64,000 nucleotides of DNA, taken from the NCBI GenBank assembly GCA_027021365.1, contig JALUUM010000022.1, forward strand, positions 19,150-83,149. Reading direction: 5' to 3'. The translations under genes and the position numbers were made by a program. The stretch comes from Spirochaetales bacterium (lineage in GTDB: Bacteria > Spirochaetota > Spirochaetia > SZUA-6). Numbering within the stretch: the stretch's first letter is position 1; each line of letters starts with the position of its first letter. Positions 5,309-53,224 of the stretch are shown piece by piece. The notes beneath the pieces are model-generated. The model made no database searches and was not told where the DNA came from. It saw only the letters and a list, made by a program, of their open reading frames with translations.

Positions 5309-5311
5309 GTT

Positions 5312-19084: not shown

Positions 19085-19125
19085 CCTGAAAATTGATTCA
19101 AAAATATCTATCCGGAAATTCTTCT

Positions 19126-21266: not shown

Positions 21267-21268
21267 CT

Positions 21269-22414: not shown

Positions 22415-22459
22415 TATAATGCCTTTATTGTTAATTCTTTGCCCAATATTCTGAATGTA

Positions 22460-24170: not shown

Positions 24171-24185
24171 TTTTCCCTCGATAAT

Positions 24186-24213
24186 CCGGATAGACCCATA
24201 GGGGCCTATCCGG
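24186..24213 (-). promoter_or_regulatory. Intercistronic stem-loop between the SBP and permease genes (8-bp stem ccggatag/ctatccgg, 12-nt loop)
   Basis: Perfect inverted repeat seen in sequence, with no following U-run. This resembles the mRNA-stabilising hairpins found after binding-protein genes, as with malE-malF. Confidence 0.4.
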
Positions 24214-24227
24214 AATGAATAAGAGTA

Positions 24228-25511
24228 CTATTGATAAGCCTCAAGAATTTTATCGGCCTTGGCTTGAGCCTGTTTCAATGTTGCATCCAGGTCTGCACCA
24301 CCCATAATTTCTTCAGTCGTTGAGTTCACGAGTTTTACAATTTCGTTTACCCTATGAGTCATCATGTTTCTCTCAGTATCAACTTCCATCAATTGCTTAT
24401 ATGCTGTCAAAGCTTGAGGCCACTTATCAGTATATTCCTTATATTCTGGAATATTAAAAGCGGCTTTCTTTACAGGAATATAACCTGAACCAAGGCTCCA
24501 CCTGGCGGTGTTTTCTGGCTTTGTCATCCATTTTATGAATTTCCAGGCGGCTGCTTCGTGTGTCTTGGTTGTTTTGAAGATGAAAAAGTTTCCTCCTCCT
24601 TCAATACATACTCTTCGTTTGTATGCTGGGAGGAAAGCTGTATTGAAATCATATTTTGTGGATTTCCGTATATGGGTAAGAGCACCGGTAGAGTTATAGA
24701 GTATACCTGTTACCCCCGCTGTAAAATCATTTACGGTTTCAGCCCATTGTTTGACAGCGGGCATTATCTTTTCGTTGGCCATGCCTAATAGAAAATTGAA
24801 AACTACCCGGGATTCTGGTGTATCGATGCTTATCTTTGTACCAGCTTCATTATCTAGCTCTCCTCCTGCCTGCAAAAGCAGAGGCTTAAAAAGCCAGAAA
24901 TTAATTGCTATTTCAACACCCCACCTTGAAACCTGACCACTCGTGTCGGTTTTTGTCAGCTTTCTTGAATAGTTTCGCAGGTCATCCCATGTGGCAGGGG
25001 GCTTTTCGGGATCTAGCCCTACTTCTCTGAAAAAATCTCTGTTATAGTAGAGTATTGGGGTGCTGCGCTGCCATGGTATAGACCATATTTTTCCGTCATG
25101 CCTTGCAATTTTCATGAAAGCCGGGATAAATTCATCTACATAAGATTTTCCACCCTCCTGATCAATAAATGTATCCAATGGGATAATGGCATTTATATCA
25201 AGTAGCGTTAAAAGAGTTGGAGCATCAAGCACTGCAACATCTGGTGGTTTTCCTGCCAGAAATGCTGTTTGTGCCTTTTCCATTGCTTCACGATAGCCAC
25301 CGGCGAAAATGGATTCTACATATACCTCATTTTGTGATTTGTTGAAGTCTGCTACCATACTATCCATTAGTTTGGCCAAAGCTCCTGCAACACCAACCGG
25401 ATAGTACATTCGCAAGTAAATCACCCCTTTCTCTTCCTGCTTGCCCTCTGTCCATCCGAGTGACACGATTAATGTGATTGTTAAGATGATTAATAAAATC
25501 TTTTTTGACAT
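24228..25511 (-). CDS. ABC transporter extracellular solute-binding protein (family 1, carbohydrate)
   Basis: 427-aa ORF with an N-terminal signal/TM. SBP_bac_1-like composition with many Trp/Tyr/Asp. It is the first gene of a minus-strand operon with two permeases. Confidence 0.8.
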   Translation of the reverse strand: MSKKILLIILTITLIVSLGWTEGKQEEKGVIYLRMYYPVGVAGALAKLMDSMVADFNKSQNEVYVESIFAGGYREAMEKAQTAFLAGKPPDVAVLDAPTLLTLLDINAIIPLDTFIDQEGGKSYVDEFIPAFMKIARHDGKIWSIPWQRSTPILYYNRDFFREVGLDPEKPPATWDDLRNYSRKLTKTDTSGQVSRWGVEIAINFWLFKPLLLQAGGELDNEAGTKISIDTPESRVVFNFLLGMANEKIMPAVKQWAETVNDFTAGVTGILYNSTGALTHIRKSTKYDFNTAFLPAYKRRVCIEGGGNFFIFKTTKTHEAAAWKFIKWMTKPENTARWSLGSGYIPVKKAAFNIPEYKEYTDKWPQALTAYKQLMEVDTERNMMTHRVNEIVKLVNSTTEEIMGGADLDATLKQAQAKADKILEAYQ

Positions 25512-29756: not shown

Positions 29757-30836
29757 TTACTGCCACAGCAGGGACTTTTCCGTTTCAGTATCGAAAAACT
29801 GAGCCTTCTCCATGTCGAATTTCAATCCCACAGAATCGCCCCTCTTAAGCTTCAGTACGGGATCTACGAGGAAATGTATTTCTATGTTGCCGACACGGCA
29901 TACTATCAGGTCGTCACGTCCCATTGGCTCTATCAGCAGGATTTCTGTCCGGAGATCCGAATTGTTGTCTATAATTATATCCTGGGGCCTTATGCCCATT
30001 TTAACAGAACCCCTGGGTTCTACCTTTGGTTTCCTACTCGGTGGTATTTCAAGCTTTATTCCCTCCCCGAGATTTGCATACATCTTGCCGCCGCTGTCCT
30101 CCAGCCTTACATCGAAAAGATTCATCGGAGGATTTCCTATGAACTCGGCAATGAACAATGTTCTTGGCCTATCGTGAAGTTCTTCCGGTTCGGTGTATGC
30201 CTGAAGGACCCCATTCTTGATAACTGCAATTCTGTCGGCCATTGTCATTGCCTCTATCTGATCGTGGGTGACGTAGATACTGGTAATGCCAAGGCTGTTC
30301 TGAAGTTTCTTTATCTCGCTTCTCATGGATATTCTAAGGCGTGCATCGAGGTTGGACAGGGGCTCATCGAAGAGAAGCAGCTTCGGTTTCTTTATCAGTG
30401 CACGTCCCAGTGCCACCCTCTGCTGTTGTCCGCCGGATAGCTGGCCGGGTTTCCTGTCCAAAAGATGTCCGATTCCCATGATATCGGCAACCCTCTGTGC
30501 CTCAGCCTGCATTTCCGTCTTGGGTCTTTTCTTTAGCATTAGTGAAAAGACGAGGTTCTGGTAAACTGACATATGAGGATAAAGGGCATAACTCTGAAAC
30601 ACCATGCCAATGTCCCTGTCCTTGGGCGGCAGGTGATTGACACGGACCCCATCGAAGAGTATGTCACCTTCTGTCGGCTTATAGATGCCCGCCACCATGA
30701 GGAGCGTTGTTGTTTTCCCGCAGCCCGAGGGCCCCAGGAAGGCAACGAACTCCCCGTCCTTGATATCTATGTTTATTCTGTTCACTGCGGTAACGCCCAT
30801 GAACTTCTTTGTCAGGTTTACAAGTTCTACTTGCAT
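29757..30836 (-). CDS. Sugar/glycerol-3-phosphate ABC transporter ATP-binding protein (MalK/UgpC-like)
   Basis: Walker A GPSGCGKTT, signature LSGGQQQRVALGRAL, Walker B LLLFDEPLSNLD, and a C-terminal TOBE-like regulatory domain. Confidence 0.9.
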   Translation of the reverse strand: MQVELVNLTKKFMGVTAVNRINIDIKDGEFVAFLGPSGCGKTTTLLMVAGIYKPTEGDILFDGVRVNHLPPKDRDIGMVFQSYALYPHMSVYQNLVFSLMLKKRPKTEMQAEAQRVADIMGIGHLLDRKPGQLSGGQQQRVALGRALIKKPKLLLFDEPLSNLDARLRISMRSEIKKLQNSLGITSIYVTHDQIEAMTMADRIAVIKNGVLQAYTEPEELHDRPRTLFIAEFIGNPPMNLFDVRLEDSGGKMYANLGEGIKLEIPPSRKPKVEPRGSVKMGIRPQDIIIDNNSDLRTEILLIEPMGRDDLIVCRVGNIEIHFLVDPVLKLKRGDSVGLKFDMEKAQFFDTETEKSLLWQ

Positions 30837-30864
30837 TCTCCCTCTCCTGTAATTATTTCTCTTT

Positions 30865-31779
30865 TCATGCGGTTCCCTTTACCCCGCCTGCAAAAATATT
30901 CAACAGATACTTCTGAGTGAATATATAGAATACTAAAACGGGTATAAGTTGATACAAGCCGACTGCCGCCAGAGTTCCGTAGTTGACCGGCGATGTTTCG
31001 GACAGCATCTCATTCAGCAGAGTGGAAAGTGTGGCCTTGGTCTGGCTCGTCATGAATGAGTATGGTATAAGGAAGGATTTCCAACCCTCCATGAAAGAAA
31101 ATATGGAAAGGGCAGCTATTCCAGGCTTTATTTGAGGAACCATTATCTGCCACCATGTTCTCCATCTGGAACACCCGTCTATCAATGCCGCCCTTTCCAG
31201 GTCCCAGGATACGTTGTCGAAAAATCCCTTCATCAACCATATGCCAAGAGGCAACTGCAAGGCGATACTAACGAGTATAACGCCACCAAGCGTGTTGTAG
31301 CCGAAGCCTCCGATCAGAGGAATGCCCCTTCCTATTACAGGGACGGATGCTATCCATCGAAGGACGAAGTAGATTGCTATAAGAAGTGTGACACTCGGAA
31401 ATGAATGGAGTATCAATGTAAGGGACAGGAAGGATTTTCTACCCGGAAATTTTATCCTTGAAAGGGCATATCCTGCCATCATCGAAACAAGAACCACACC
31501 TACCGTAAGGCCGATTGCAATTATCAGGGTATTCAGTGTGAGAAGCCAGATGGAGGCATTCAGTGTCTTGGATTTATCGTAGAGAAATGCCCAGTTGGAT
31601 AGTGTAAGCCCCTTGAAGTAATTACCCTGTTGGTCCACCGGAATAAGCCCGTAGCACCTCGTTGAGAAGGTGGAAACAAGTATCCAGAGGTAGCCCAGTA
31701 TTATGGGGAGCGATAGCACAACCAGTAAAATATAGGGAAGACTTCTTGTAAAAGGATTTCTCGATCTTATCTCTTTCAT
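30865..31779 (-). CDS. ABC transporter permease (UgpE/MalG-like)
   Basis: 6-TM permease with an EAA loop (AALIDGCSRWRTWWQIMVPQIKPG). Confidence 0.85.
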   Translation of the reverse strand: MKEIRSRNPFTRSLPYILLVVLSLPIILGYLWILVSTFSTRCYGLIPVDQQGNYFKGLTLSNWAFLYDKSKTLNASIWLLTLNTLIIAIGLTVGVVLVSMMAGYALSRIKFPGRKSFLSLTLILHSFPSVTLLIAIYFVLRWIASVPVIGRGIPLIGGFGYNTLGGVILVSIALQLPLGIWLMKGFFDNVSWDLERAALIDGCSRWRTWWQIMVPQIKPGIAALSIFSFMEGWKSFLIPYSFMTSQTKATLSTLLNEMLSETSPVNYGTLAAVGLYQLIPVLVFYIFTQKYLLNIFAGGVKGTA

Positions 31780-31793
31780 CTCAATCCTCCCCT

Positions 31794-32732
31794 TTAAGTC
31801 TCGATTTTGGGTTCCTGCACCAGCTCGCCGAATTTAAAGTACCGCATGTATATGATTCCAAGGATTATCCCTATTACAACAAGCACCGCTGCCAGTGCGT
31901 TTCCGAAGCCCCACTGGAAATTTCCCCAGTAGTTGTTAAGGGCCCTGTGGTATGCCCAGAGTGACCAGACTTCCGTGTTGAACTCTCCGTTTGTAAGGAC
32001 CAGTATCTGTTCGAAAGAGGTCATGAGTGAAAGTGTCTGGTATGTCGTAACAAAGAGGAGGGGCCATTTGATATATGGAAGTATCACGTACCTAACTCTC
32101 TGCATGAAGGAAGCACCATCCACAAGAGAAGCTATCATTATGTCTTTTGGTATTGCTTCGATGGCAGAGGTGAAAATAATCATTCCGAAGGATGCCCCTA
32201 TGTAACCGTTTACAAGAACGATAAAGAGAAAGGATGCGGCAGGTACCCAGTCCTGGGGGGTGAATCCCAAAGGCTGAACGAACAGTTGGTTTATGACACC
32301 ATAGGGGGCATTTGCTCCCAGGAATTTCCACATCATAACATAGATTACGGTTGGGGTGATTCGCGGGAGCAGCCAGAGTGCTCTGAAAAAGAAACCTGCA
32401 CCCTGGGAGATGTGAGTCGTTATCAGTGAAATGACCAACGCCATTCCGACATTGAAAAATACCAAGGTAACTGCCACATACTTCACGGTAAGCCATAGAT
32501 GTTTTGGCGTTTCAGGATGTATGGCAATCATTTTGTAATTGTCCAGACCAATCCATTTCCAGTTGTTGAAACCCGTACTGGAACTCATATTGGTACCGGA
32601 AACGAAGATTGTTATTATTACGGGCAGAAAAAAGAACAGAACGATTAGAAGAAGCGAGGGGAAGAGAAACCAGAACCATTCAAGCCGGGTTGAAAGCTTC
32701 TTGGTTTCCGTTGCCTCCTTTTTCTCTTTCAA
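31794..32732 (-). CDS. ABC transporter permease (UgpA/MalF-like)
   Basis: 6-TM permease with a conserved loop (ASLVDGASFMQRVRYVILP). Confidence 0.85.
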   Translation of the reverse strand: MKEKKEATETKKLSTRLEWFWFLFPSLLLIVLFFFLPVIITIFVSGTNMSSSTGFNNWKWIGLDNYKMIAIHPETPKHLWLTVKYVAVTLVFFNVGMALVISLITTHISQGAGFFFRALWLLPRITPTVIYVMMWKFLGANAPYGVINQLFVQPLGFTPQDWVPAASFLFIVLVNGYIGASFGMIIFTSAIEAIPKDIMIASLVDGASFMQRVRYVILPYIKWPLLFVTTYQTLSLMTSFEQILVLTNGEFNTEVWSLWAYHRALNNYWGNFQWGFGNALAAVLVVIGIILGIIYMRYFKFGELVQEPKIET

Positions 32733-32777
32733 TTTGTTTCTCCTTTTTTTGTTTTTATTATAGACTGAAATTTTAAT

Positions 32778-32807
32778 GCCGGGTATTCGATTGGAAGAAT
32801 ACCCGGC
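32778..32807 (-). promoter_or_regulatory. Intercistronic stem-loop between the SBP and permease genes (11-bp stem gccgggtattc/gaatacccggc, 8-nt loop)
   Basis: Perfect inverted repeat seen in sequence, at the same relative position as the hairpin in the first sugar ABC operon. Confidence 0.45.
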
Positions 32808-32829
32808 TGATTTGCATTTTCTGACGGCT

Positions 32830-34221
32830 CTACTTGATAATTATCGAATCACCGAGCTCCAGTTTTAACTGTTTGACAACCGATTCAACTGCCTCTTTGG
32901 GAGTCTTTTCTCCGTTTTCAGCAGCGGTCATTCCGTTCCATACTATATCGAACCATACACTGTAACCGGAATGATTCGGCTGGTACCAGTTGTAGTTAAG
33001 CATGTATGTGACATCGGAGAGGAACTTGGAATCCTTGTAAGGCTTGTAGTCCATCTGTGATTTCAGGATACCGAGGTGTGTGCTCTCTACCGCATGCTTT
33101 GTATTGATCTCTTTAGTAGTCATCTTGGCAAGAAGCCTGATTACCAGGTCTCTGTCCTTGTGGCCTGAGGCCTTTTCGGTGGTGACCATGTAGACCAGCG
33201 GGTGGGAGAGAGTGTTACCCTTCTTGCCCCTGATTCCTGAGGGCTGTAATGCATAACCGACATTTTTGAAGAGGAAATCCTCGTCTCCATTGAGGTAGTT
33301 GACCTTCCAGTCTGCCCACTGCCATATTCCACCGTTCCAGAATAGTACTTTGTTGTGGCTTACAGTATCATGCCAGATTTTCCATTCGGTACCTATGTAG
33401 TTCTTGGGTGTGATCCCGGAAGTCACGCATTTCCTCTGAAAAGCATACCATTTTTCAAGTGCGTCCTTCACAAGAACGAGCTTGTCCTGTTCGGGGTCGT
33501 AGAGGTAACCGCCATAGGAGACATAGTACTGTAGGAAATCTCCTCCCTTTCTTGGTCTGTGCCAGTAACCGTATCCGGGTTTTACCACACCCTTTGCAAT
33601 GGCTTCCTTGGCCGTGTTGATCATGTCATCCAGGGTGAATTCTCCGTTCTTGATCTTGTCTGGAAGTTCTGCAATCTGCTTGTCGGACCACCCCAGTTCT
33701 TTGAGTTTTGTCTTGCTGAAAAACATGGGACGAGCCTCTGTATCCTGAGGTACGGCCCAAATCTTACCGTGCCACATTCCCGCATTCCAGAGGCTGTCGA
33801 AGACATCCTTGAACTCGGGATACATCCCCTGAATCTCTGAAACAGAGTTTGCAAGGGGCATTATGTATCCTGCCTGTGCCCAGACGGGAACATCTTCGTG
33901 GCCGGAGCAAATGATGTCGGGACCTTCACCTGCGTCCGCTGCCATGGTAAACTTTTTCTTATAATCACCCCATGGCGGATTTGAATAATCGGCTTTGACA
34001 ACAACGGTTATCTGTTTTCCCTCTTTCTTGAGTTCCTCGTTCAAAAGCTTGGCTGCCTCGACTGCTGCATCAGCACGCCAGTGTTCCACGTTGTTTGCCC
34101 TTGCCCACACAGTAATAGTTACTGTCCTGGGCCCAGCCTGTTTGGCCGCTTCCTGTTTACCGCCGGCAAATATCAATGCGGGGATCACAAGAAGTGCCAA
34201 AAGAAGAGCAAGTTTTTTCAT
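32830..34221 (-). CDS. ABC transporter solute-binding protein (UgpB-like, glycerol-3-phosphate/glycerophosphodiester or sugar)
   Basis: 463-aa ORF with signal peptide MKKLALLLALLVIPALIFAGG. Family-1 SBP fold composition. First gene of a four-gene operon with two permeases and an ATPase. Confidence 0.8.
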   Translation of the reverse strand: MKKLALLLALLVIPALIFAGGKQEAAKQAGPRTVTITVWARANNVEHWRADAAVEAAKLLNEELKKEGKQITVVVKADYSNPPWGDYKKKFTMAADAGEGPDIICSGHEDVPVWAQAGYIMPLANSVSEIQGMYPEFKDVFDSLWNAGMWHGKIWAVPQDTEARPMFFSKTKLKELGWSDKQIAELPDKIKNGEFTLDDMINTAKEAIAKGVVKPGYGYWHRPRKGGDFLQYYVSYGGYLYDPEQDKLVLVKDALEKWYAFQRKCVTSGITPKNYIGTEWKIWHDTVSHNKVLFWNGGIWQWADWKVNYLNGDEDFLFKNVGYALQPSGIRGKKGNTLSHPLVYMVTTEKASGHKDRDLVIRLLAKMTTKEINTKHAVESTHLGILKSQMDYKPYKDSKFLSDVTYMLNYNWYQPNHSGYSVWFDIVWNGMTAAENGEKTPKEAVESVVKQLKLELGDSIIIK

Positions 34222-34460
34222 ATCATCCTCCTTCTTAATCTTGATATGTCTTTGAATTTAAAAAATCGTATCTTGACTGTATTGCATTGTCAAATTTTGA
34301 TTGACTACAGCTTAATAGCCCAACAGAAGTTTAATAAACGAACTTAGCTTATTTTGTTTCCTTTAATTTCTGTTGTCAACTGGTGGTAAAATACTTCTGT
34401 TAATTAGACATGGTGTAAACAGAGGATTGTTGACTTGCAAAAGTGAGGGACTCTAAACTA

Positions 34461-35390
34461 ATGAATACAAATATGATAGTTGTGGCACACGCGGCAAGAA
34501 TCAATATGGATTATCCCCCGAATACATTGGAGGGAATAAAGACCTGCATGGACAGGGGGCTGGAATATATCGAGGTAGATCTTGCACCCCTGGCACACGG
34601 GGATTTTATTCTCTTTCACAATGAAAGGCTGGACCAGGTAACCAACAGGAGAGGCGATGTCTTTACATTGAACGAGGATGAGAAGAGGGAGTTATTCTAT
34701 ACGGGGAAGAGCAGCGGGGTGGATCGTGCAATACATGTTTCATCTCTTGCAGAGATACTGGATGTGATAAGTGGTGATGAGAGGATAAAGGAGCTACAGC
34801 TCGATATTAAGGTGTATCCGACATCCCTCGTGCATGAGCAGTTGCTCAAACATCTCGTTGAAATGATAAGGCCTGCAAAGGACAAGTTGAGGGTAACGAG
34901 TTGTGCCGACTGGATAATAATAAAATTAAGGGAGCTTGATGCCAGTATCAAGCTGGGATTCGATCCGCAGTTCTATGTCGATTTCAGGGAGAGTAGCGAG
35001 GAGTATCCGCCATTCAAGGCAAACAGGTTCGGGTATCTGGACGATCATCCCGTTGCACATCAGAAGTGGGGAAGTGCCCTTGATTACTTAATGGCACGGG
35101 CAGATTCACTCTGGCACATGGGGGCTGCAGCGGACGTGTGGTATATGCGGTATGAATTCTTGTTGCACTCGCTGAAGGATGGTTTTGACTGGGGAGAGTA
35201 CCTTCACGGTAGGGGTGTGGCTGTCGATGCGTGGACAGTGGACCTGGAGGCCGGGAAGGACAGGGGAAATGACAAGGGCGAGAATAAGGGCGAAAGGGAA
35301 ACGCTTGAAAAGCTTAAAAAACTGAATGTTGACAGGATTACCTCAAATACACCTCTCGAGTGGGTAAGAGTTCTGGATAAGGCCGATTAA
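34461..35390 (+). CDS. Glycerophosphodiester phosphodiesterase (GDPD/UgpQ-like) family protein
   Basis: GDPD N-terminal motifs VVAHAARINMDYPPNTLEGIK...GLEYIEVDLAPLAHGDFILFHNERLD. Probable start at ATG 34461 (MNTNMIVVAH); the track start at 34443 is an in-frame GTG inside a TTGACT promoter-like element. Transcribed divergently from the ugp-like operon. Confidence 0.6.
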   Translation: MNTNMIVVAHAARINMDYPPNTLEGIKTCMDRGLEYIEVDLAPLAHGDFILFHNERLDQVTNRRGDVFTLNEDEKRELFYTGKSSGVDRAIHVSSLAEILDVISGDERIKELQLDIKVYPTSLVHEQLLKHLVEMIRPAKDKLRVTSCADWIIIKLRELDASIKLGFDPQFYVDFRESSEEYPPFKANRFGYLDDHPVAHQKWGSALDYLMARADSLWHMGAAADVWYMRYEFLLHSLKDGFDWGEYLHGRGVAVDAWTVDLEAGKDRGNDKGENKGERETLEKLKKLNVDRITSNTPLEWVRVLDKAD

Positions 35391-40312: not shown

Positions 40313-41560
40313 TCAGGCTCCCTTTTTAAGCCTGCTTCCCATCATGTTCAACTTGTACATTCTTATAGTATCGGGCATGAGCACTTTGCCCAGAGGTGAT
40401 GCGAAGTAAAGGGCATCCTCGGGACACTGCACGATGCAGGCGCTGCACTGGACGCATCTCTCTGATCCCGTGATTACCGCTTTTCTCCCCTCGATTGAAA
40501 AACAGTTTCTAGGACAGACATCAACACAGATTCCGCAACCGGTGCACCTTTCCCGATCCAGCATCACCTTGAGTAGCCTTTCCTCGTGAAGGCCACTCTT
40601 GTATACAGGTGTGCTTCCCATGAGGTCTATATTTACGAGAAGCATCATTGAAAGGGAGACAAAGCCCCAGCGGAGAAGAAGTGACAGTGACAATGTTCCC
40701 GCGGCAAGTGAATACGGTAAAACACCGAGCATGAAGACTAGCCAGAGAATCAACGATACCCAGCCAATGTTGAACAGGACCGTGTACTTGCTTATTCCCA
40801 GTTTCCCCGAAAGAGGTCTGCCAACATGAGGTTCCTTGGAAGGGCCCGGATAAGACCCGTAAGATCCGTAGTTTCCGTAAAATCCGTGATTCTTTCCTTT
40901 TTTCCCGGTCAAAAGCCCGGAATAGAGGGGAAAGGTAATAAAGACGAAGAGTGGTACTATCCAGGAAGCAGCCACGGTAAGAATCAGCATTTGCCTCCAG
41001 AAGATGTAGGTCAGCAAGGCAAGGATAAGGGAAAAGGGAAACGCCCACATGACTGCCATTTCGAGCCTGTGGAGCAGGGGAAACTTTACCATTCGCATGT
41101 TGGCATCCTTCCTGTGACCGTCCTCGAGAATTTGCGTAAACCGTGGTATGTCCTTTGCATGGACCGGTCCCCAGATAACATGCCAACCGGTTTTTTTTCT
41201 TACAACACCTGCCTCTATTCCAGCCGCAGCAAGCTGCGGGAATATCACCCTTCGGTGATCCACCAGTTGTTCGATTCCACTCGTTTTCAAAACGGAAACT
41301 GCCGAGTGGTTGGACAGGTGGCCTCCCGTAGATGCGCACCACACGTTGATTCCATTGCTGTTTGCCACCAAGAGATAGCAATCCATCCCCTCGAGAGCTT
41401 TTTTCACCCTCTCGACGCTGACTGCATAGTTGCAGGTTAGAAAAACCGGTGATGACCTGTCCGGGTTCCCGATCTTTCTCAGGCCCGTCTTTGCAGGCAG
41501 AGGAAATCCTCTAAGAAGGGTACCCACGATATTTATGAAGAAATATTTCAACGAAGGCAT
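40313..41560 (-). CDS. Fused HgcA-like corrinoid-binding domain + multi-TM domain + C-terminal 2x[4Fe-4S] ferredoxin (HgcB-like): a fused HgcAB-type paralog
   Basis: N-terminal CFeSP/HgcA cap-helix region GINVWCASTGGH (compare canonical NVWCA[AGS]GK), VIFPQLAAAGIEA and VIWGPVHAKDIPRF. A central run of about 5 TM helices contains a Gly/Tyr-rich loop. The C-terminus has CTGCGICVDVCP and CVQCSACIVQCP ferredoxin motifs. The 286-aa ORF at 40521-41381 is an out-of-frame shadow. Confidence 0.7.
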   Translation of the reverse strand: MPSLKYFFINIVGTLLRGFPLPAKTGLRKIGNPDRSSPVFLTCNYAVSVERVKKALEGMDCYLLVANSNGINVWCASTGGHLSNHSAVSVLKTSGIEQLVDHRRVIFPQLAAAGIEAGVVRKKTGWHVIWGPVHAKDIPRFTQILEDGHRKDANMRMVKFPLLHRLEMAVMWAFPFSLILALLTYIFWRQMLILTVAASWIVPLFVFITFPLYSGLLTGKKGKNHGFYGNYGSYGSYPGPSKEPHVGRPLSGKLGISKYTVLFNIGWVSLILWLVFMLGVLPYSLAAGTLSLSLLLRWGFVSLSMMLLVNIDLMGSTPVYKSGLHEERLLKVMLDRERCTGCGICVDVCPRNCFSIEGRKAVITGSERCVQCSACIVQCPEDALYFASPLGKVLMPDTIRMYKLNMMGSRLKKGA

Positions 41561-41589: not shown

Positions 41590-42258
41590 TCAATGACTCC
41601 CGGGATTCCGCGCAATGATCTCTGTAAAACTTTCCATACCATTCATGTTGATACTTTCCACGGCGAACCCCGCTTCTTCAATCTGTAGGGCCGGTTCTCT
41701 TAAACTTTTCGTTGTCGTACCCGTAATGAGGTATGTAACGATGACCAGCGGAAGCCTTATAAGGGCATAAACGAATCGCTTTACCAAATTCTTCGGAACT
41801 GTTTCATCGGCTATTAGCAACAGGCCGCCCGGCTTTATTATCCTCCTTAGCTCTCGAAGTGTAAAGCGAATCTCATCCTGGCTCAATTCGGAAAAGCACA
41901 GGGTACTCGTTGCAGCATCGTAACTGCCTTCACTCACTGAGGAAAGTTCTGCAACACCCATCTCTGAAAACTCGACATTTTCTTTCAGTTCTTCCGGCAT
42001 ATCGGACTGCTTAAGGCGTTTTTTTGCAATTTCAAGCATCGCCGGGTTGATGTCTATTCCTCTTACCAGGGCTCCTCTCTCTGCCATCCGAATGGAAAGA
42101 AGCCCTGTGCCGCAGCCAATGTCTAATACCTTCATACCGCATTTGATATGAGAGGCAATTCTGTCGTATGCCGGTTTTATACGTCCCAATGTTACAACGG
42201 ATATTCCCATATCATACCGCTCTGGGGAAGACTCGAGTATTCTCATAAGTACATACAT
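41590..42258 (-). CDS. Class I SAM-dependent methyltransferase
   Basis: Motif I VLDIGCGTGLLSIRMAERG, acidic post-I residue (GIDIN), and motif II/III IKPGGLLLIADE. It lies 30 bp upstream of, and is co-oriented with, the HgcAB-like gene. Confidence 0.8.
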   Translation of the reverse strand: MYVLMRILESSPERYDMGISVVTLGRIKPAYDRIASHIKCGMKVLDIGCGTGLLSIRMAERGALVRGIDINPAMLEIAKKRLKQSDMPEELKENVEFSEMGVAELSSVSEGSYDAATSTLCFSELSQDEIRFTLRELRRIIKPGGLLLIADETVPKNLVKRFVYALIRLPLVIVTYLITGTTTKSLREPALQIEEAGFAVESINMNGMESFTEIIARNPGSH

Positions 42259-46767: not shown

Positions 46768-47727
46768 ATGGTATTGAACTGGGGTCTCATAGGATGCGGA
46801 GATATCGTTAACAAGAGGGTGGGTGCTGCCCTGCGTGATCTCGACAACTGTAATCTTGTTGCGGTAAGCAGGGCAAGGGGTAATCTTGCAGAGGGATGTG
46901 CAAGGGAGTTTGGCGCTTCCAGGTGGTATGATGACTGGCATGAACTTCTTGAAGACAGAGATGTCCAGGCAGTCTATGTAGCTACTCCGCCTTACCTTCA
47001 TGCCGAACAGACCATTGCTGCTGCGAAGAAGGGAAAGCATGTTATATGTGAAAAACCCATGGCACTATCCACTGAAGATTGCAGGCGAATGATAGATGCA
47101 TGCAGTGAAAACAATGTCTCCTTGAGTATTGCCTATTACAGGCGTTTTTACCCTGTAATAAAGAGGGTGAAAGAAGTCATTGATGAAGGGATAATCGGAA
47201 AGCCTATCATTGCCCAGATCAATGCCTTCGAATACTTCGACATAAAGAGTGGTGATGAGCGTGACTGGCTGATTGAAGGATCAAAGGCAGGAGGCGGGCC
47301 CATGATGGATTTTGGCTGTCACAGGATAGAGCTTCTTCTCTCTCTATTTGGTAATGCGGAAGAAGTAAAAGGCAAGAGCGGGAATGTCTATTTCGAAAGG
47401 GAGGTGGAAGACACAGCTATCGGTGTAATCGGCTTTTCTGGCGGCACGATGGGGATTGTTTCCGTTACAACGGCTGCCGAAGAGCCGATGGATTCCTTGG
47501 ACATGTACGGAAGCAAGGGTTCCATACATATTCCGGTAGTAAACAAAGGAGAATTGATAATTCGGAGCATGGACGAGGTTATGCATGAAAGCTATCCTCC
47601 GCACGAGAACCTCCACCTTCCCTACATCGAGGCTGTAACGGATGCCATTCTTTCCAGGAAGAAGGTTCCTGTAGACGGTGAAACCGGTCTCGAAGTAAAC
47701 AGGATAATCGAAGAGATATATTCATAG
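46768..47727 (+). CDS. Gfo/Idh/MocA-family NAD(P)-dependent oxidoreductase
   Basis: N-terminal Rossmann motif LNWGLIGCGDIVNKRVGAAL, then EKPMALSTEDCRRMIDAC, and a C-terminal alpha/beta domain typical of the family. The substrate cannot be inferred. Confidence 0.85.
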   Translation: MVLNWGLIGCGDIVNKRVGAALRDLDNCNLVAVSRARGNLAEGCAREFGASRWYDDWHELLEDRDVQAVYVATPPYLHAEQTIAAAKKGKHVICEKPMALSTEDCRRMIDACSENNVSLSIAYYRRFYPVIKRVKEVIDEGIIGKPIIAQINAFEYFDIKSGDERDWLIEGSKAGGGPMMDFGCHRIELLLSLFGNAEEVKGKSGNVYFEREVEDTAIGVIGFSGGTMGIVSVTTAAEEPMDSLDMYGSKGSIHIPVVNKGELIIRSMDEVMHESYPPHENLHLPYIEAVTDAILSRKKVPVDGETGLEVNRIIEEIYS

Positions 47728-47768: not shown

Positions 47769-49565
47769 TTATGTTGATTTCAATTTATAACGTTTTATCT
47801 TCTTGGTAGTGGTCATCTCCATGGGTTCATCGAGGAGTGTGAACCTCTCTATCCGTTGATAGGGAAGCAGTTCCCTGTTGACCTCGGAGATTATTCTTCC
47901 GATTCTTTCCCTTTTTCCTTTTTCCCCGTATTCTTCAAAGTAATCAGGGGAGGGATACACCAGCGCTTCTATTCCTTCCACCTTCATCTGTTCGTCTTTT
48001 GTAAAACCCCTCACAACTATCTGTTCTATCTCTTCGTAGAGTTGAAAATGATCCTCAATTTCCTCCGGATAGACGTTTTTCCCTCCCTCGGTGACTATCA
48101 TTGATTTTTTTCTTCCGGCAAGGTAAAGGTAGTTCTCCGAATCGAGGTAACCGAGGTCTCCTGTTTTCAGATAGCCATCTTCGGTAAAGGCCTCCCTCGT
48201 TGCTTCGGGATTCTTGTAGTAACCCCCGGTCACTATGGGCCCCTTTATCAGTATCTCTCCGATACCTTTCTCGTCTTCATCCTTAATCCTTACATCCACC
48301 CGGGGAATCACCTTCCCCACTGATGTGACCTTGTACCTCTCAACGGGATTCAGGGTGACAATGGGAGATGTTTCTGTCAATCCGTATCCCTGGACGAAGT
48401 CGATGCCAAACTGGTTGTACATTTTGAAAGTGGAGGGGGCAAGGGGCCCTCCGCCGGAAATGCATATCCTTATACTATCCAGAGACGCCTTTGAAAGAAT
48501 GGAATGAAAGAGCCTCTTTCCGGGGTTGACCTTGAGTACCTTCTTTACCAGCCCGCTGAATCCCATAAGAAGGCGAACAATGGCGTACACGACGATGCCC
48601 TTTTCCCTTATCCCTTTGAGGATTCCCTTTAGCAGCTTATTGAACAAGAGGGGGATCCCGAGAAACATGGTGACTCTTCCCCGTTTGAGATCCGATAGTA
48701 TTTCTTTCACCACAAGTCTCTTGGCAAAGACTATCTCGGCTCCTACTGAAATTGCCTGAAGAAATACGGCATTCATCGAGTATGAGTGGTGTAGGGGAAG
48801 AAGTGCATAGAAGACATCATTCTTTGATACATTCAGTAGTGACTGGGCAAGGAAAACATCGCTTACCAGGTTGCCATGTGTAAGCATTACACCCTTCTCG
48901 TTGCCGGTTGTTCCGGATGTAAAGAGTATTGCTGCAAGATCGTCTTCCTCTGGTTGCATTCCCGGTGAAGGCTTTTGTAGAGAGTCATCGAACTGCCCTG
49001 TCTCGGCGGTTACCTCGTTTTTTTCTGGCTTATCAGGCTCTGGCCTCGTGGTTTCTCCCTTTCCTGCAATGTCCAATATGTAGCCTGGCCTCTTGTCTGA
49101 TAGCGATATGATTAGTGAAAAATCACCTGATTGTTTGGCATAATCGTATTTCTCTTCGTCTATAAAGAGGCACCTTGAACCTGCAAAACGTGCAAGGTGA
49201 AGTATCTTTTCCGTTTCGAGCTGGTAATCTATCGGAACAACAACTCCTCCGGCGGACAGGATGGAGAGAAAGGCCAGTGTCCATTCCGGTGAGTTTTTTC
49301 CTGTAAGGGCAATTTTATCTCCCCTCTTTATTCCCCTTTGGGAAAGATATTTAGAGATACCGGTTACAATTCCGTAAGCATCACCATATGTGAGCGAGAT
49401 TTCCTCGCCATCGAATGATGTGAAACACCTCCTCTCGGGATACCTATGTGCTGTTATTTCAAAGAGTTTGTCAATGGTTGGCCACTCGCCTTTGAAAGTC
49501 TTTCCCCTGTACTGATCCAGAAAGTCCCAGGGATTATTGTTCTTGTTTACAGTGCTTTTCTTCAT
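47769..49565 (-). CDS. AMP-dependent synthetase/ligase (long-chain fatty acid-CoA ligase-like)
   Basis: AMP-binding motif ILFTSGTTGNEKGVMLTHGNL, plus TGDLG and GRKKSMIV motifs. Probable start at ATG 49565 (MKKSTVNKNN), which has a GAGGTG RBS; the track start at 49604 is in frame. Confidence 0.85.
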   Translation of the reverse strand: MKKSTVNKNNNPWDFLDQYRGKTFKGEWPTIDKLFEITAHRYPERRCFTSFDGEEISLTYGDAYGIVTGISKYLSQRGIKRGDKIALTGKNSPEWTLAFLSILSAGGVVVPIDYQLETEKILHLARFAGSRCLFIDEEKYDYAKQSGDFSLIISLSDKRPGYILDIAGKGETTRPEPDKPEKNEVTAETGQFDDSLQKPSPGMQPEEDDLAAILFTSGTTGNEKGVMLTHGNLVSDVFLAQSLLNVSKNDVFYALLPLHHSYSMNAVFLQAISVGAEIVFAKRLVVKEILSDLKRGRVTMFLGIPLLFNKLLKGILKGIREKGIVVYAIVRLLMGFSGLVKKVLKVNPGKRLFHSILSKASLDSIRICISGGGPLAPSTFKMYNQFGIDFVQGYGLTETSPIVTLNPVERYKVTSVGKVIPRVDVRIKDEDEKGIGEILIKGPIVTGGYYKNPEATREAFTEDGYLKTGDLGYLDSENYLYLAGRKKSMIVTEGGKNVYPEEIEDHFQLYEEIEQIVVRGFTKDEQMKVEGIEALVYPSPDYFEEYGEKGKRERIGRIISEVNRELLPYQRIERFTLLDEPMEMTTTKKIKRYKLKST

Positions 49566-49824
49566 GGAAATCACCTCTTGTTTGTGCCGAAACGTGTCGC
49601 CCACTGCATGTTACCACCATTTGCCTATTTTAAAAACTGTTAGTATAATAAAAATAGAAAGTATTTATTTACAGTGTCAACTTTTTCATATGCTCCTAAG
49701 TTTTGAAAGATAAGAGGATGGGCGTAGCAATTCATTGTTAGGTTGCTTTCCGTAGAGAAGCAAGACCCGCCTCTTGTAATATCAAAAAACTTTACGAAAC
49801 CCAAACCTAAGAAAGGAGAGTCGG

Positions 49825-51849
49825 ATGAAGTGTCTGATTATAGCCGCAGGTAAGGGTGAAAGACTTAAGACGAAAAGCATTCCCAAACCCCTGATGCCTG
49901 TGGCAGGTTTAAAATTGATTGAAAGAACCATAGTGTCTGCAAGCAGGGCAGGTTTGAGAGACTTCTATGTTGTAACAGGAAACAGGGAAAGAGAGGTAGA
50001 CCTCTTTCTGGAGGAACTGGCAAAGAGAAGAAATCTTAGGATTACTCATATTCACAATGAAGACTGGGACAGGGCTGAGAACGGTGTCTCGGTTCTTGCC
50101 GCTAAAAATCTCATAGATGAGGATTTTATACTTCTAATGGCAGACCATATCTTTGATGAGAGCACTTTGAAAGATCTTGTCAAGGAGAAGCTCGATGGTA
50201 AAGACCTTCTTCTTGCAATCGATACGAGGGTGAAGGCCAATCGGTATATAGAAATGGATGATGTGACAAAGGTGAAGTATCGGGAGGGGAGAATAGTCGA
50301 TATCGGTAAGGCACTTACAGAGTACAATGCCTTCGATACGGGAATGTTTCTCTGTTCACCTCGTTTTTTCAGGGTGCTGGAAGAAAGCACCAGGGAGGGC
50401 AGTACAAGTCTCTCTGCGGCTGTGAAGAAACTGGCAGAGGTTGGAAAGGCAGGAGTATTCGAAATTGGAGACAGATTCTGGATGGATATTGATACGCCCT
50501 CCGATCTCAAGAAGGCGGAAAAATTGCTCTATTCGAAGCTTATAAAGCCACACGATGGCTGGGTGTCGAGAAAAATAAACAGGAAATTCTCATTGTATAT
50601 CTTTACACCTCTTCTGCTGAAGCTCTTTCCCAGGATAACCCCCAATATGGTTTCTGTTGTCAGTGCGGTGACCGGTTTGATTGCCTCTCTATTCTTTTTT
50701 CTTCATTCTGCTGTTGTGGGAGGTATATTGACACAGCTTGCAAGTATCCTGGATGGCTCGGATGGTGAGGTTGCAAGGCTCAAGAAGATGGAAAGCCCAT
50801 TCGGAAATTTCCTTGATGCCCTTCTTGACAGGTACACAGATTTTTTCATTCTATCCGGCATATCCTTTTTTCTCCTGACAAACGGGGTGATGAAATCTCT
50901 TTTAGGAATAATCTTTCTTCCCCTCACCCTTTTGGTATCACTACTTGCAATAGTCGGCCACATCATGGTGAGTTATACCTCAGCCAGAGCACTGGCTGAT
51001 TTCGGATACAGGTACAGGGGAGGCTGGTATGCAGCGGGCAGGGGAAGAGATATCAGGTTGTTCGTGATTTTTGCCGGAGCCCTTCTCTCGGTGATACATC
51101 CCCTGTTTTTATTCCTTGCAGTATTTATTATTGCAGTACTTACCAATGCAATAGTTGTAAAGAGAGTGATGGTTTCCCGCTCCGAAGGATACCCGGGATC
51201 GAAGAGGAAAAACCTGCCACAGGCCGTTATTTTCGACCTGGACGGAACGATAGCGGATACCATGGGTGCGTTGATAGATCTTGCTACGGAAATGATAACG
51301 GCCAATTATGCTATTCTCGAGGGTGAAGCCAGGAGAAGATATCTTGAAACCACGGGATTGGATTTTGCAACGCAACTCGAAATCATGTTTCCGGGCGACA
51401 GGAAAAACAGAGAGGTAGCAGAGGAATTCGAAAGGAGAAAGAGAAAACTTATTATGGACCTTCCCATTTTTCCCGATGCTGTCGATGCCCTTAGATTCTT
51501 CAAGGAGAGGGGAATCCCTGTCTTCGTGTGCAGCAGTACTACGGACGAAATGATAAAAGCTTACTTCAGGGAACACCAGATGGACGGGCTTATTCACAGC
51601 TTCTCGGGGTTGAAAGACGGATTTTCCAAGGCAAGGCAGATAGAAAGTATCCTTGGGAAACACCATTTCGACAGGGACAGCATCGTTTTTATCGGTGATT
51701 CCCTGAAAGACGGAGAGATTGCCAGGGAGATTGGCATAGTTTTCTTTGGAGTTGAAAGGATATTCAGTGCTTCGGATTTCGAAAAGAGGGGTTTCCGTAG
51801 TGTGCCTGACCTTAGGGAGTTCGTAAGACTCTTTTCCTCAGTCAACTGA
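49825..51849 (+). CDS. Tri-domain enzyme: sugar/inositol-phosphate cytidylyltransferase (IPCT-like) + CDP-alcohol phosphatidyltransferase (DIPPS-like) + C-terminal HAD-family phosphatase
   Basis: The N-terminus has NTP-transferase motifs (IIAAGKGERL...KPLMPVAGLKLIERTI; FWMDIDTPSDL). The middle has the linker GWVSRKINRKFS, then TM helices with the CDP-OH-P-transferase signature DGSDGEVAR...GNFLDALLD. The C-terminus has HAD motifs I (VIFDLDGTIADT), II (VFVCSST) and IV (FIGDSLKDGE). The first two domains match the bifunctional IPCT/DIPPS architecture from memory. Confidence 0.75.
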   Translation: MKCLIIAAGKGERLKTKSIPKPLMPVAGLKLIERTIVSASRAGLRDFYVVTGNREREVDLFLEELAKRRNLRITHIHNEDWDRAENGVSVLAAKNLIDEDFILLMADHIFDESTLKDLVKEKLDGKDLLLAIDTRVKANRYIEMDDVTKVKYREGRIVDIGKALTEYNAFDTGMFLCSPRFFRVLEESTREGSTSLSAAVKKLAEVGKAGVFEIGDRFWMDIDTPSDLKKAEKLLYSKLIKPHDGWVSRKINRKFSLYIFTPLLLKLFPRITPNMVSVVSAVTGLIASLFFFLHSAVVGGILTQLASILDGSDGEVARLKKMESPFGNFLDALLDRYTDFFILSGISFFLLTNGVMKSLLGIIFLPLTLLVSLLAIVGHIMVSYTSARALADFGYRYRGGWYAAGRGRDIRLFVIFAGALLSVIHPLFLFLAVFIIAVLTNAIVVKRVMVSRSEGYPGSKRKNLPQAVIFDLDGTIADTMGALIDLATEMITANYAILEGEARRRYLETTGLDFATQLEIMFPGDRKNREVAEEFERRKRKLIMDLPIFPDAVDALRFFKERGIPVFVCSSTTDEMIKAYFREHQMDGLIHSFSGLKDGFSKARQIESILGKHHFDRDSIVFIGDSLKDGEIAREIGIVFFGVERIFSASDFEKRGFRSVPDLREFVRLFSSVN

Positions 51850-51953: not shown

Positions 51954-52814
51954 ATGTGGATAGAGAAGAAACCCTTCGGAAGCTGTTTCGAACTCTCTTC
52001 GGGAAGTATCAGGGCCCTTGTGGCACCTGAAATGGGAATGTCCCTGGCGAGTTTTACCATAGGTGGTATCCAGATTCTCGATACCTCGAGGCTAAAGGAT
52101 TTTCTTCTTACCAGGAAGGGTCTTGGGCCACTTATACTTCCCCATTTCAATTGTGAGGGTTTTTCCCCAGAGGATAAGATCGAAGAACTCAAAGAGAAAT
52201 TTCCCCACATAGAAGAACTGGAAAAGATAGGTGTCGATCACCCGTTCCAGCATGGCCTTGGACGGTATGTAAGCTGGTATGCCGAAGAGAGTGAGGATTC
52301 CATAACAGGTTTTCTTACCGGTGACATGCAGTATATGGGTTACAAGCTCAAAACACTTGCCGGTTTCGATTTCGAGGCACGCGTTTCATTCAGGATAGCT
52401 CCGGACAGTCTTATCGTAGCCTTCGATGTTACCGGAGAAAAACCCATTGCCACAGGCATTCACTACTATTATGACCTGGTCGATCGGAACAGTGCTGAAA
52501 TAGAGCTTACCGAAAGAGATGGTTCTACAAGAAAGATAAAACTCGACAGGCCATATGATGATACTTTCCACCCGGGAAGCAGGTTCGGAGATTATACGAA
52601 TTGCAGTTTGAAAACAAGGAACTATCGTCTCGATACGGTTTTCAAAGTTAAGGGAAAGCCGGAAGAAATTTTCGAATCACTCGTGATTTTCAGCCCGGAA
52701 GAGAGTGGTTTCATATGCATAGAGCCATTGAGTTACTATCCGGGTAAGGGCCCGACAAAAACCCAAAATAGCGGTGTGATAATGCTCCGACCGACTTTTC
52801 CAGGGTACAGGTGA
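51954..52814 (+). CDS. Aldose 1-epimerase (galactose mutarotase-like) family protein
   Basis: 286-aa ORF with mutarotase-like motifs (HPFQHGLGRYVSWY; FICIEP). Confidence 0.45.
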   Translation: MWIEKKPFGSCFELSSGSIRALVAPEMGMSLASFTIGGIQILDTSRLKDFLLTRKGLGPLILPHFNCEGFSPEDKIEELKEKFPHIEELEKIGVDHPFQHGLGRYVSWYAEESEDSITGFLTGDMQYMGYKLKTLAGFDFEARVSFRIAPDSLIVAFDVTGEKPIATGIHYYYDLVDRNSAEIELTERDGSTRKIKLDRPYDDTFHPGSRFGDYTNCSLKTRNYRLDTVFKVKGKPEEIFESLVIFSPEESGFICIEPLSYYPGKGPTKTQNSGVIMLRPTFPGYR

Positions 52815-53224
52815 TGAAAGGTATGTATGATCTTGCGAATAGACTTATGAAACCTGTCTTTTCCTTTGATTCCGCTCTCAACCTCTTTCTGGGGCTTTTC
52901 TTTCTGTTCATGCCGGAGAGGGCCAGTTCTTTCCTCCTCAAAGAGAGTCTCTTCCCAAGATACGCATGGGTGATTCTTGGGGCGGGCTTTCTCTACTTCG
53001 GATACTGGCAGATCAGGACGATTATCCGGGACAAGTTGGGCAGGGGAGCGGTGACATTTAGTTTTTTCATGGCTATTGTTCCAGCAGTAATTCTGGCGAT
53101 TCTCCTATTCCTTCTCTATGAGAAAATCAGTAAGATTGGCTTTATCGTTCTCCTTGCAGGCGATATCTATATGTTCCTTCTCTCTTTGCTCTATGGGGCG
53201 ATATTGAAGGACAGGTGGGAGTAA
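52811..53224 (+). CDS. Small integral membrane protein, hypothetical
   Basis: 137-aa ORF with four predicted TM segments. It overlaps the upstream stop by 4 nt. Confidence 0.45.
   Translation: MMKGMYDLANRLMKPVFSFDSALNLFLGLFFLFMPERASSFLLKESLFPRYAWVILGAGFLYFGYWQIRTIIRDKLGRGAVTFSFFMAIVPAVILAILLFLLYEKISKIGFIVLLAGDIYMFLLSLLYGAILKDRWE

Follow-up and report, generated by a model that had tools for sequence, protein, structure and literature searches.

Can the synthesis of an inositol phosphodiester solute, from the activation of its precursor to the final dephosphorylation, be carried by one polypeptide? The question is raised by a gene in a 64,000-nucleotide stretch of DNA from a Spirochaetales bacterium (assembly GCA_027021365.1, contig JALUUM010000022.1, positions 19,150 to 83,149 of the forward strand; the whole stretch is called the window below), in which a cytidylyltransferase domain, a membrane-embedded CDP-alcohol phosphotransferase domain and a HAD phosphatase domain follow one another in a single reading frame. 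Di-myo-inositol phosphate (DIP) is a signature solute of hyperthermophiles, and to our knowledge its formation from the phosphorylated intermediate di-myo-inositol phosphate phosphate (DIPP) has been attributed only to promiscuous enzymes of the inositol monophosphatase (IMPase) type. We give about an even chance to the reading that the protein, as one membrane-anchored enzyme with three activities, would convert CTP and inositol-1-phosphate via CDP-inositol and DIPP to DIP, or to a very close relative of it.

The gene lies at positions 49825 to 51849 of the window on the forward strand, and the listing of open reading frames (ORFs) gives it as a single uninterrupted ORF with an ATG start, 674 codons and a stop codon. 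A Shine-Dalgarno sequence, read from the DNA (AAAGGAGAG, positions 49809 to 49817, forward strand), stands 6 nt 5′ of the ATG, and the ATG at 49825 is backed as the start codon by the homologs, which likewise begin with MKCLI. That the three-domain ORF is complete is seen from the ORF listing, from Pfam, NCBIfam and PDB matches and from a structural model. All three domains exceed the Pfam gathering thresholds: NTP_transferase at residues 3-234 (42 bits, with NTP_transf_3 at 44.9 bits), CDP-OH_P_transf (PF01066) at residues 271-429 (38.6 bits) and HAD_2 at residues 468-643 (66 bits). In the PDB, residues 1-451 match best (E = 1.6e-57) the structure 4MND, the bifunctional inositol-1-phosphate cytidylyltransferase/DIPP synthase (IPCT/DIPPS) from Archaeoglobus fulgidus, followed by AF2299, 2XME and 4JD0, and the top NCBIfam match is the Thermococcales IPCT/DIPPS model NF041135 (301 bits, E = 1.1e-89). 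The equivalog cut-off of that model, 580 bits, is missed; this says little, since the model is specific to Thermococcales and two-domain enzymes of other phyla whose genes are linked to the synthase of myo-inositol-1-phosphate (MIPS) fail it too, at 279-298 bits, as compared with 263-301 bits for the HAD-fused proteins and 199 bits for a divergent actinobacterial one (L023). An AlphaFold2 model of the fusion protein, built from 23 homologs, has a mean predicted local distance difference test score (pLDDT) of 88.4, residues 455-462 being the sole internal segment below 50, and Foldseek aligns it to 4MND with a TM-score of 0.90 and an rmsd of 3.0 Å over 454 columns. The fusion of cytidylyltransferase, transferase and HAD in one membrane protein is thus real, with matches far beyond chance. 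An initial annotation, made from the DNA alone, had assigned the same three domains and was right in every detail: the motifs that it quoted are found at residues 245-256 (GWVSRKINRKFS), 310-335 (DGSDGEVARLKKMESPFGNFLDALLD) and 471-475 (DLDGT), and those of the HAD domain also at residues 569-572 (CSST) and 624-629 (GDSLKD).

It had also thought the architecture unusual for a spirochete-like genome of about 45% GC and proposed a survey for similar fusions; the survey made here shows that the architecture is not peculiar to this genome. More than 120 full-length three-domain homologs, of 46-69% identity, were found in a search of 5.8 billion proteins, under the source names Deltaproteobacteria, Chloroflexi/Dehalococcoidia, anammox bacterium, ANME-1/Methanophagales and Ca. 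Ethanoperedens. When one genome per GTDB species was scanned, at least 588 stretches encoded relatives, and the best 80 loci were taken with their flanks. Together with loci from other searches, these make up the set compared below (L numbers denote loci): 29 three-domain loci, counted without redundancy, and 53 loci with two domains (NTP-transferase plus CDP-alcohol transferase), two of the latter being fused-type genes cut by contig ends. The 29 fused loci span Spirochaetales, Chloroflexota, Scalindua, Latescibacterota, Actinomycetota and others, and the architecture therefore belongs to a widespread clade; among the best 80 loci, the closest relative comes from an uncultured Spirochaetales metagenome-assembled genome (MAG), at 66% identity, while a look-up of the identical protein on public contigs gave no match. 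A literature search found no report of a HAD fusion to IPCT/DIPPS. Note also that one MAG (assembly JADFKX01, Chloroflexota isolate B4T1B11) holds two different fused-type genes, L012 and L022, one of them cut by a contig end, which reflects either paralogy or a mixed bin.

The N-terminal domain (residues 1-238, positions 49825 to 50538, forward strand) resembles CTP:inositol-1-phosphate cytidylyltransferases in Pfam, PDB and Foldseek comparisons and carries the signature G9-x-G11-x-R13...K21, in which G9, G11, R13 and K21 are invariant among the 23 aligned fused proteins. Its best PDB matches are, besides 4MND, the inositol-1-phosphate cytidylyltransferases 2XME (E = 3.5e-26) and 4JD0 (E = 6.8e-19), and not choline or glucose-1-phosphate enzymes, the kinds of match that the initial annotation had named as speaking against its proposal; Foldseek TM-scores against the IPCT structures are 0.83-0.90. 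In the HAD-fused clade as well as in the MIPS-linked one, 45 positions are conserved at 85% or more, and none of them differs between the clades; the query domain is 47.6% identical to the MIPS-linked clade vs. 44.5% to the other fused proteins. Since the domain has not diverged in a clade-specific manner from the MIPS-linked enzymes, there is a strong case that it makes CDP-inositol. It is followed by a linker with a juxtamembrane amphipathic helix (residues 239-270, positions 50539 to 50634, forward strand), for which the model predicts a helix at residues 246-267 and in which K241, D244-G245, N252-R253 and S256 are invariant in both clades as well as in the A. fulgidus enzyme (AfDIPPS) and AF2299.

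The second domain (residues 271-453, positions 50635 to 51183, forward strand) is a DIPPS-like CDP-alcohol phosphotransferase, as seen by PF01066, PDB and NCBIfam matches and by the model, which predicts six transmembrane (TM) helices at residues 273-292, 296-319, 325-352, 354-393, 408-421 and 427-453. By alignment, its catalytic motif, D310-G-x-x-D313-G-x-x-A317-R318...G327-x3-D331-x3-D335, maps to positions 50752 to 50829 (forward strand), and D310, D313, G314, A317, R318, G327, D331 and D335 are invariant both in the 23 fused proteins and in the 82 related loci. Compared on its own with NCBIfam, the domain scores highest with DIPPS (118 bits), then with archaetidylinositol-phosphate synthase (95 bits) and with phosphatidylinositol-phosphate (PIP) synthases (68 and 56 bits), while the remaining families, including the phosphatidylserine and phosphatidylglycerophosphate synthases that had been named as the matches to fear, reach at most 25 bits. 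The cut-offs of PIP synthase (67.8 vs. 170 bits) and of archaetidylinositol-phosphate synthase (94.6 vs. 180 bits) are missed. The four top-ranking curated families have in common that inositol-1-phosphate is the acceptor and that the product is phosphorylated.

The acceptor pocket points the same way. Its signature in the query, S383-Y384-T385, R388, R408-D409-I410-R411 (RxxR) and R447, was placed by alignment at positions 50968 to 51171 (forward strand), and S383-Y384-T385, K/R388, R408-D-x-R411 and R447 are invariant across all 82 loci and AfDIPPS, with slight alterations in AF2299 (Ala at the Ser position) and in RsPIPS. R411 and R447 align with R153, of the RxxR motif, and R191 of RsPIPS, which bind the phosphate of the acceptor inositol-phosphate (Clarke et al., 2015; PMC4634129). 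The signature is discriminating, since it is absent as a whole from a second family of CDP-OH+HAD fusions, three members of which retain Arg at single positions. A soluble donor, CDP-inositol, is implied by the fusion of the IPCT domain to the transferase. Most probably, then, the transferase would join phospho-inositol to a soluble, phosphate-bearing alcohol and release a phosphorylated product; the case for transfer to a phosphorylated soluble acceptor is fairly strong, and that for inositol-1-phosphate as this acceptor and DIP as the final product is moderate.

A flexible linker (residues 454-465, positions 51184 to 51219, forward strand), of low pLDDT and of variable length in the alignment, connects the sixth TM helix to the HAD phosphatase domain (residues 466-674, positions 51220 to 51846, forward strand), which is recognized by Pfam HAD_2, by alignment and by the model, and which has a helical C1 cap. 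Motif I is D471-L-D473-G-T475, motif II S570/S571, motif III K602 and motif IV G624-D625-S-L-K-D629; D471, D473, T475, S570/S571, K602, D625 and D629 are invariant in the 23 aligned fused proteins, down to 46% overall identity. The predicted fold is a Rossmann-like core with a four-helix insertion (residues 480-543) between the strands at 467-471 and 566-569, and the cap motif ETTGLDFATQLEIMFP stands at residues 508-523. The domain reaches no curated NCBIfam subfamily cut-off (HAD-IB, 41.5 vs. 45 bits; phosphoglycolate phosphatase, 39 vs. 368 bits). The subfamily to which it belongs has few members, 19 representatives being found at E ≤ 1e-30 among 1.84 billion, and its nearest members are the C-terminal domains of proteins of about 700 residues. 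Fusions of the types CDP-OH+HAD, X+CDP-OH+HAD and NTP+HAD contain remoter members, of 35-39% identity, whose cap motif is similar (..T[TS]G.[DP]F..Q[LM]E..FP).

Put together, these domains suggest the following sequence of reactions. Inositol-1-phosphate would be supplied by a MIPS encoded elsewhere in the genome. The cytoplasmic N-terminal domain would, as its strong homology indicates, convert CTP and L-myo-inositol-1-phosphate to CDP-inositol and pyrophosphate (PPi). The six-TM transferase, judging from homology and from the conservation of its active-site and acceptor residues, would transfer phospho-inositol from CDP-inositol to a second phosphate-bearing soluble alcohol, most likely inositol-1-phosphate, yielding CMP and DIPP. 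The HAD domain, for which the architecture and comparative genomics are our guides, would strip the remaining phosphomonoester from DIPP to give DIP and inorganic phosphate, rendering the pathway irreversible. From the even number of TM helices and the topology of 4MND, the HAD domain is expected to share the cytoplasmic side with the active-site cavity and the IPCT domain. Solute pathways with two steps and a phosphorylated intermediate (trehalose-6-phosphate, mannosyl-3-phosphoglycerate, sucrose-6-phosphate) typically employ a dedicated HAD phosphatase, often fused to the synthase: in the OtsA/OtsB, MpgS/MpgP, GpgS/GpgP and SPS/SPP pairs the intermediate is hydrolyzed in this manner, and gene fusions are common. 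The synthases of such pairs are unrelated to our protein in fold and substrates, and none is membrane-embedded.

Comparison of gene neighborhoods provides a further clue to the third step. The commonest neighbor of the two-domain genes is a gene of about 190 codons that overlaps their stop codon (e.g., L034:2872-3450 and L038:2605-3186) and encodes a protein matching Pfam DUF4202 (67.6 bits) and the HD domain (24.4 bits vs. a cut-off of 22), with H..HD..HH..D motifs. It abuts the 3′ end in 35 of the 48 two-domain loci with enough downstream DNA, one further case being doubtful, and is fused in frame to the two-domain enzyme in a Terriglobia MAG (L068:9995-11881), which makes 36 of the 48; it is absent from all 24 HAD-fused loci for which this could be judged. 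Across ANME-1, Planctomycetota and Nitrospiraceae, the DUF4202 proteins share 72-95% identity; all sources list their function as unknown, and no literature on DUF4202 was found. A HAD phosphatase and an HD-superfamily phosphohydrolase thus never occur together, which suggests that they are alternative third components after the transferase. Since they are mutually exclusive at the same position, the simplest explanation is that both fill the hydrolysis of the DIPP phosphomonoester, and the DUF4202/HD protein becomes a candidate for a DIPP phosphatase or for another component of the pathway. The initial annotation had proposed the HAD domain for the third step, and this part of it gains indirect support from the phosphate-binding arginines of the acceptor pocket and from the HD gene at the equivalent position of the two-domain loci; as for its catalytic role and product, we infer, with moderate confidence, that it is the product phosphatase.

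Several observations, which we gather here, weigh against a complete DIP pathway on this polypeptide. The 64-kb window contains no MIPS (ino1) gene and no IMPase gene, and a same-strand MIPS gene immediately upstream, found in 24 of 45 two-domain loci, is seen in none of 22 HAD-fused loci, the only fused loci with MIPS nearby being L003 and L004, at a distance of 1.4 kb. The transferase domain stands apart as a lineage (the query reaches 48.7% identity within the fused clade vs. 39.8% to the two-domain clade), with three loop insertions at about residues 264-266, 355-362 and 424-428 and with fixed substitutions, among them G405 in place of an R of the two-domain clade, so that its acceptor specificity could differ. 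Lineages of ANME-1/Methanophagales hold both the fused type and the two-domain type with DUF4202, a redundancy if both types gave the same product. Two related contigs of deltaproteobacteria carry an IMPase-family (PF00459) gene immediately downstream of the fused gene (L008:10377-11231 and L086:2149-2613), and the HAD domain may for that reason do something else. Finally, the same HAD subfamily accompanies NTP-transferases and CDP-alcohol transferases that lack the inositol-phosphate signature, which hints at a role of HAD common to all such modules, for example in PPi or CMP hydrolysis or in acceptor supply.

The last two of these points belong to an explanation in which the first two domains make DIPP, an IMPase-type enzyme dephosphorylates it, and the HAD domain would hydrolyze, for example, PPi, inhibitory CMP or free inositol-1-phosphate. 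HAD-family pyrophosphatases and pyrimidine 5′-nucleotidases do exist (PpaX, BT2127, cN-III), and the subfamily is found with NTP-transferases whatever the type of transferase: it is fused to one in P0414, and free HAD genes abut one, with CDP-alcohol transferases nearby, in L088, L090 and L091. Furthermore, in L089 (positions 4935-6624) a free-standing HAD gene of this subfamily (38% identity) shows translational coupling with MIPS, a dual-specificity phosphatase gene coming next, and the coupling suggests inositol-1-phosphate as a HAD substrate; this coupling and the IMPase-family genes of L008 and L086 tie the subfamily to inositol phosphate, to which the fused clade is also linked by the MIPS near the fused gene in L003 and L004. 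There is, on the other hand, no PpaX or pyrophosphatase model among the NCBIfam matches of the HAD domain, and an inositol-1-phosphate phosphatase fused to a consumer of two molecules of inositol-1-phosphate would be futile. If an enzyme recognizes inositol-1-phosphate as a moiety, one would expect it to take DIPP as well, as is reported of the IMPase of Thermotoga maritima, and the mutual exclusion of HAD and the HD/DUF4202 gene is most simply explained by a single pathway step that otherwise has no enzyme. IMPase is the enzyme to which the dephosphorylation of DIPP is usually ascribed, and it is labeled so in PMC8397731. On balance, we regard an accessory role of this kind as unlikely.

Two of the loci just mentioned were considered as split versions of the fusion and rejected. 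L086 looked like a two-domain gene with a free HAD; it is better read as a fused gene frameshifted in the linker, since its two ORFs overlap and read through the linker of the family. In the Myxococcota locus L088, the NTP domain is just 24% identical, and the transferase matches only around the catalytic motif. As for L089, the further genes of its contig, for DnaB, a primase, a DNA methylase and a protein resembling 5-hmdU DNA kinase, give it the look of a phage or mobile element that bears inositol-phosphate genes.

The lineage-specific features of the transferase, together with the missing MIPS adjacency and the presence of both clades in ANME-1, also speak for another acceptor: phospho-inositol would be passed to a different phosphorylated polyol, such as sn-glycerol-3-phosphate, and HAD would yield a different phosphodiester solute, glycero-phospho-inositol or an undescribed compound. 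A glycerophosphodiester phosphodiesterase (GDPD) gene flanks the fused gene in L010, L011 and L012 and lies 6 kb off in L005; in our window, a GDPD gene (positions 34443 to 35390) is found about 15 kb upstream of the fused gene, divergent from an Ugp-like ABC operon (MalK-type ATPase, permeases and solute-binding protein, within positions 29757 to 35390, reverse strand). Such adjacency is limited to 4 of 29 loci, however, and enzymes of the GDPD fold could hydrolyze DIP as well. The synthesis of glycero-phospho-inositol is said, by Borges and co-workers in 2006, to use CDP-glycerol as donor, and the conserved IPCT domain argues against such a donor here. Although the transferase domain scores slightly higher with AF2299, a binder of CDP-glycerol (PMC4634129), than with AfDIPPS (100.8 vs. 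86.5 bits), the two clades and AfDIPPS, a proven enzyme, have the same acceptor-lining residues as far as these are known (S-Y-T, K/R388, RDxR and R447). A rough neighbor-joining tree also makes the fused clade monophyletic and groups it with AfDIPPS, AF2299 joining the two-domain (MIPS/DUF4202-linked) clade; we do not rely on these deep placements of AfDIPPS and AF2299, because the branches are long and the mean distances of AfDIPPS to the two clades are equal (0.68 vs. 0.69). We consider a different acceptor of this kind unlikely.

A wider formulation takes the fused clade as a functionally distinct branch, making an undescribed inositol phosphodiester, using an acceptor other than inositol-1-phosphate or building a membrane-associated head group. 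It is pointed to by the separate transferase lineage with its three insertions, the absent MIPS linkage and the two clades of ANME-1, and also by recurrent neighbors: GDPD, the IMPase family and Gfo/Idh/MocA oxidoreductases (the inositol 2-dehydrogenase family), the gene for which lies directly 3′ of the fused gene in the distant relatives L005 (positions 12196-13491), L016 (3880-4386) and L028 (12893-13945) and adjoins none of the two-domain genes sampled. We hold this to be possible, if doubtful.

The remaining alternative is an inositol lipid, in which CDP-inositol would serve a membrane alcohol (diacylglycerol, dialkylglycerol or ceramide) and HAD would supply the acceptor, for instance as a phosphatidate phosphatase, or act as an accessory. 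CDP-inositol has been shown experimentally to be a lipid head-group donor (Jorge et al., as summarized in PMC4587543), namely for the ether lipid of Rhodothermus marinus, made by IPCT and BEPIS. Compared by description, the MIPS-IPCT-BEPIS operon of that organism likewise makes CDP-inositol with its IPCT, and differs from our system in that the acceptor is a neutral lipid alcohol and the product a lipid. The inositol-lipid makers of Bacteroides and Prevotella carry an NTP-transferase, a CDP-alcohol transferase and a HAD beside MIPS, the latter two of the three being fused in P. veroralis (PMC9246714); this alternative cluster, whose BVU proteins we likewise compared by description, has the same three activities with a lipid product. 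As a route to Bacteroidetes inositol lipids it is an unconfirmed proposal (Heaver et al., 2022; PMC9246714), for which our literature search found no later confirmation. The HAD subfamily of the query is itself fused to other CDP-alcohol transferases, in the second fusion family, which comprises CDP-OH+HAD (P0402, P0438, P0487, P0502, P0505), X+CDP-OH+HAD (P0408, P0420) and NTP+HAD (P0414) proteins and whose CDP-alcohol transferase has the motif DG-x-DGE-x-A[KR]; the enzyme of Bacteroidetes/Prevotella type that Heaver et al. describe may belong here. In the window, moreover, an acyl-CoA ligase gene (positions 47769 to 49604, reverse strand) is divergent from the fused gene at a distance of 220 bp, and an acyl-ACP thioesterase gene is also near. 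Several lines of evidence stand in the way. The CDP-OH+HAD fusions, possibly of the Bacteroidetes type, lack the acceptor signature and represent a different transferase family, and the lipid-gene neighbors find no counterpart beside the gene of the 66%-identical relative. The nearest solved and curated relatives use soluble substrates, lipids being processed, according to PMC4634129, by neither of the enzymes AF2299 and AfDIPPS, and the query has only six TM helices as against three to four more in known lipid-acceptor enzymes (PMC4634129). Both phosphate-binding arginines are kept, with no evident role toward a neutral lipid alcohol. We therefore regard an inositol lipid as quite improbable.

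Returning to DIP synthesis, the closest known systems are the IPCT/DIPPS enzymes of A. fulgidus (AF0263, 4MND), Thermococcales and Thermotoga, which share with the query the order of cytidylyltransferase, juxtamembrane helix and six-TM transferase. The catalytic motif and acceptor-pocket residues of the A. fulgidus enzyme are identical to those of the query, and the folds agree as closely as the TM-score given above indicates, although overall identity is only 31-39%; the query differs by its additional C-terminal HAD domain of 209 residues, by the three insertions in the membrane domain and by the lack of a MIPS neighbor. AF2299 (4O6M), a CDP-alcohol phosphotransferase of A. fulgidus to which no physiological function is assigned, matches the membrane domain of the query equally well or slightly better, shares RDxR, R447 and the catalytic residues and acts on soluble substrates; unlike the query, it lacks HAD, and its cytidylyltransferase-like domain is truncated and non-catalytic. 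The same logic of a CDP-activated donor, inositol-1-phosphate as acceptor and a separate phosphatase is followed by PIP synthase with PIP phosphatase (mycobacterial PgsA1; Bacteroides BT_1523/BT_1525) and by archaetidylinositol-phosphate synthase, which share the acceptor arginine pair with the query. Unlike the query, these enzymes use a lipid donor (CDP-diacylglycerol or CDP-archaeol), make a membrane lipid and have no fused cytidylyltransferase.

Besides the acyl-CoA ligase gene, a Gfo/Idh/MocA oxidoreductase gene (positions 46768 to 47727) is found about 2 kb upstream. Downstream, on the forward strand, follow an ORF of 286 codons (positions 51954 to 52814) without a Pfam match and with a marginal PDB match to 3K25 (Slr1438, E = 0.21), and a predicted membrane protein of 137 residues (positions 52811 to 53224), also without a Pfam match; there is no terminator-like site between the fused gene and these two ORFs, which may be co-transcribed with it. 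A promoter and terminator scan gave counts no higher than those of shuffled controls. An OmpA-domain protein and the acyl-ACP thioesterase, the latter convergent, are encoded further downstream. None of the neighbors of the fused gene in the window is conserved beside its 66%-identical counterpart in the Spirochaetales MAG.

Elsewhere in the window, a MscS channel is encoded at 38.0 kb. The segment from 18000 to 25500 has a GC content of 0.34-0.41, vs. about 0.45-0.47 elsewhere, and holds genes for a protein with a LacI-type periplasmic-binding domain, for two ABC permeases, for a solute-binding protein and for a LigT-like 2′-5′ RNA ligase; this is possibly an island for sugar uptake that was acquired horizontally. 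At positions 40313 to 41560 (reverse strand) lies an ORF with a segment similar to CdhD, the delta subunit of CO dehydrogenase/acetyl-CoA synthase, and with 4Fe-4S ferredoxin domains, adjoined by a class I methyltransferase gene at positions 41590 to 42258.

The initial annotation had found this architecture unusual on the assumption of a mesophilic host, an assumption that amino-acid composition renders doubtful. The fraction of IVYWREL residues is 0.425-0.428 in the window (37 ORFs; 0.425) and in L001, of the Spirochaetales MAG, the highest among 15 loci compared, and glutamine is low, at 2.1%. From this fraction, a crude estimator applied to small samples, a nominal optimal growth temperature of about 63-66 °C is obtained (about 63 °C for the window), and the spirochaete-like host may be thermophilic rather than mesophilic.

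The HAD domain fused to IPCT/DIPPS is a first concrete candidate for a dedicated DIPP phosphatase, and the DUF4202/HD gene a second one, which would give a role to a domain of unknown function; should the fused clade prove to be a functionally distinct branch, HAD and DUF4202/HD would be two unrelated, previously unrecognized product phosphatases. If the polypeptide of 674 residues indeed turns CTP and inositol-1-phosphate into DIP, it would be a convenient biocatalyst for the production of this extremolyte. Non-thermophilic Thaumarchaeota and Atribacteria were already reported to have IPCT/DIPPS genes (PMC8397731; bioRxiv 10.1101/536078). The at least 588 stretches found among GTDB species representatives extend these reports, genes of this type being common in uncultured sediment and subsurface lineages such as Chloroflexota, Latescibacterota, anammox bacteria, ANME-1 and Actinomycetota, and this breadth makes it questionable whether DIP marks hot environments alone.

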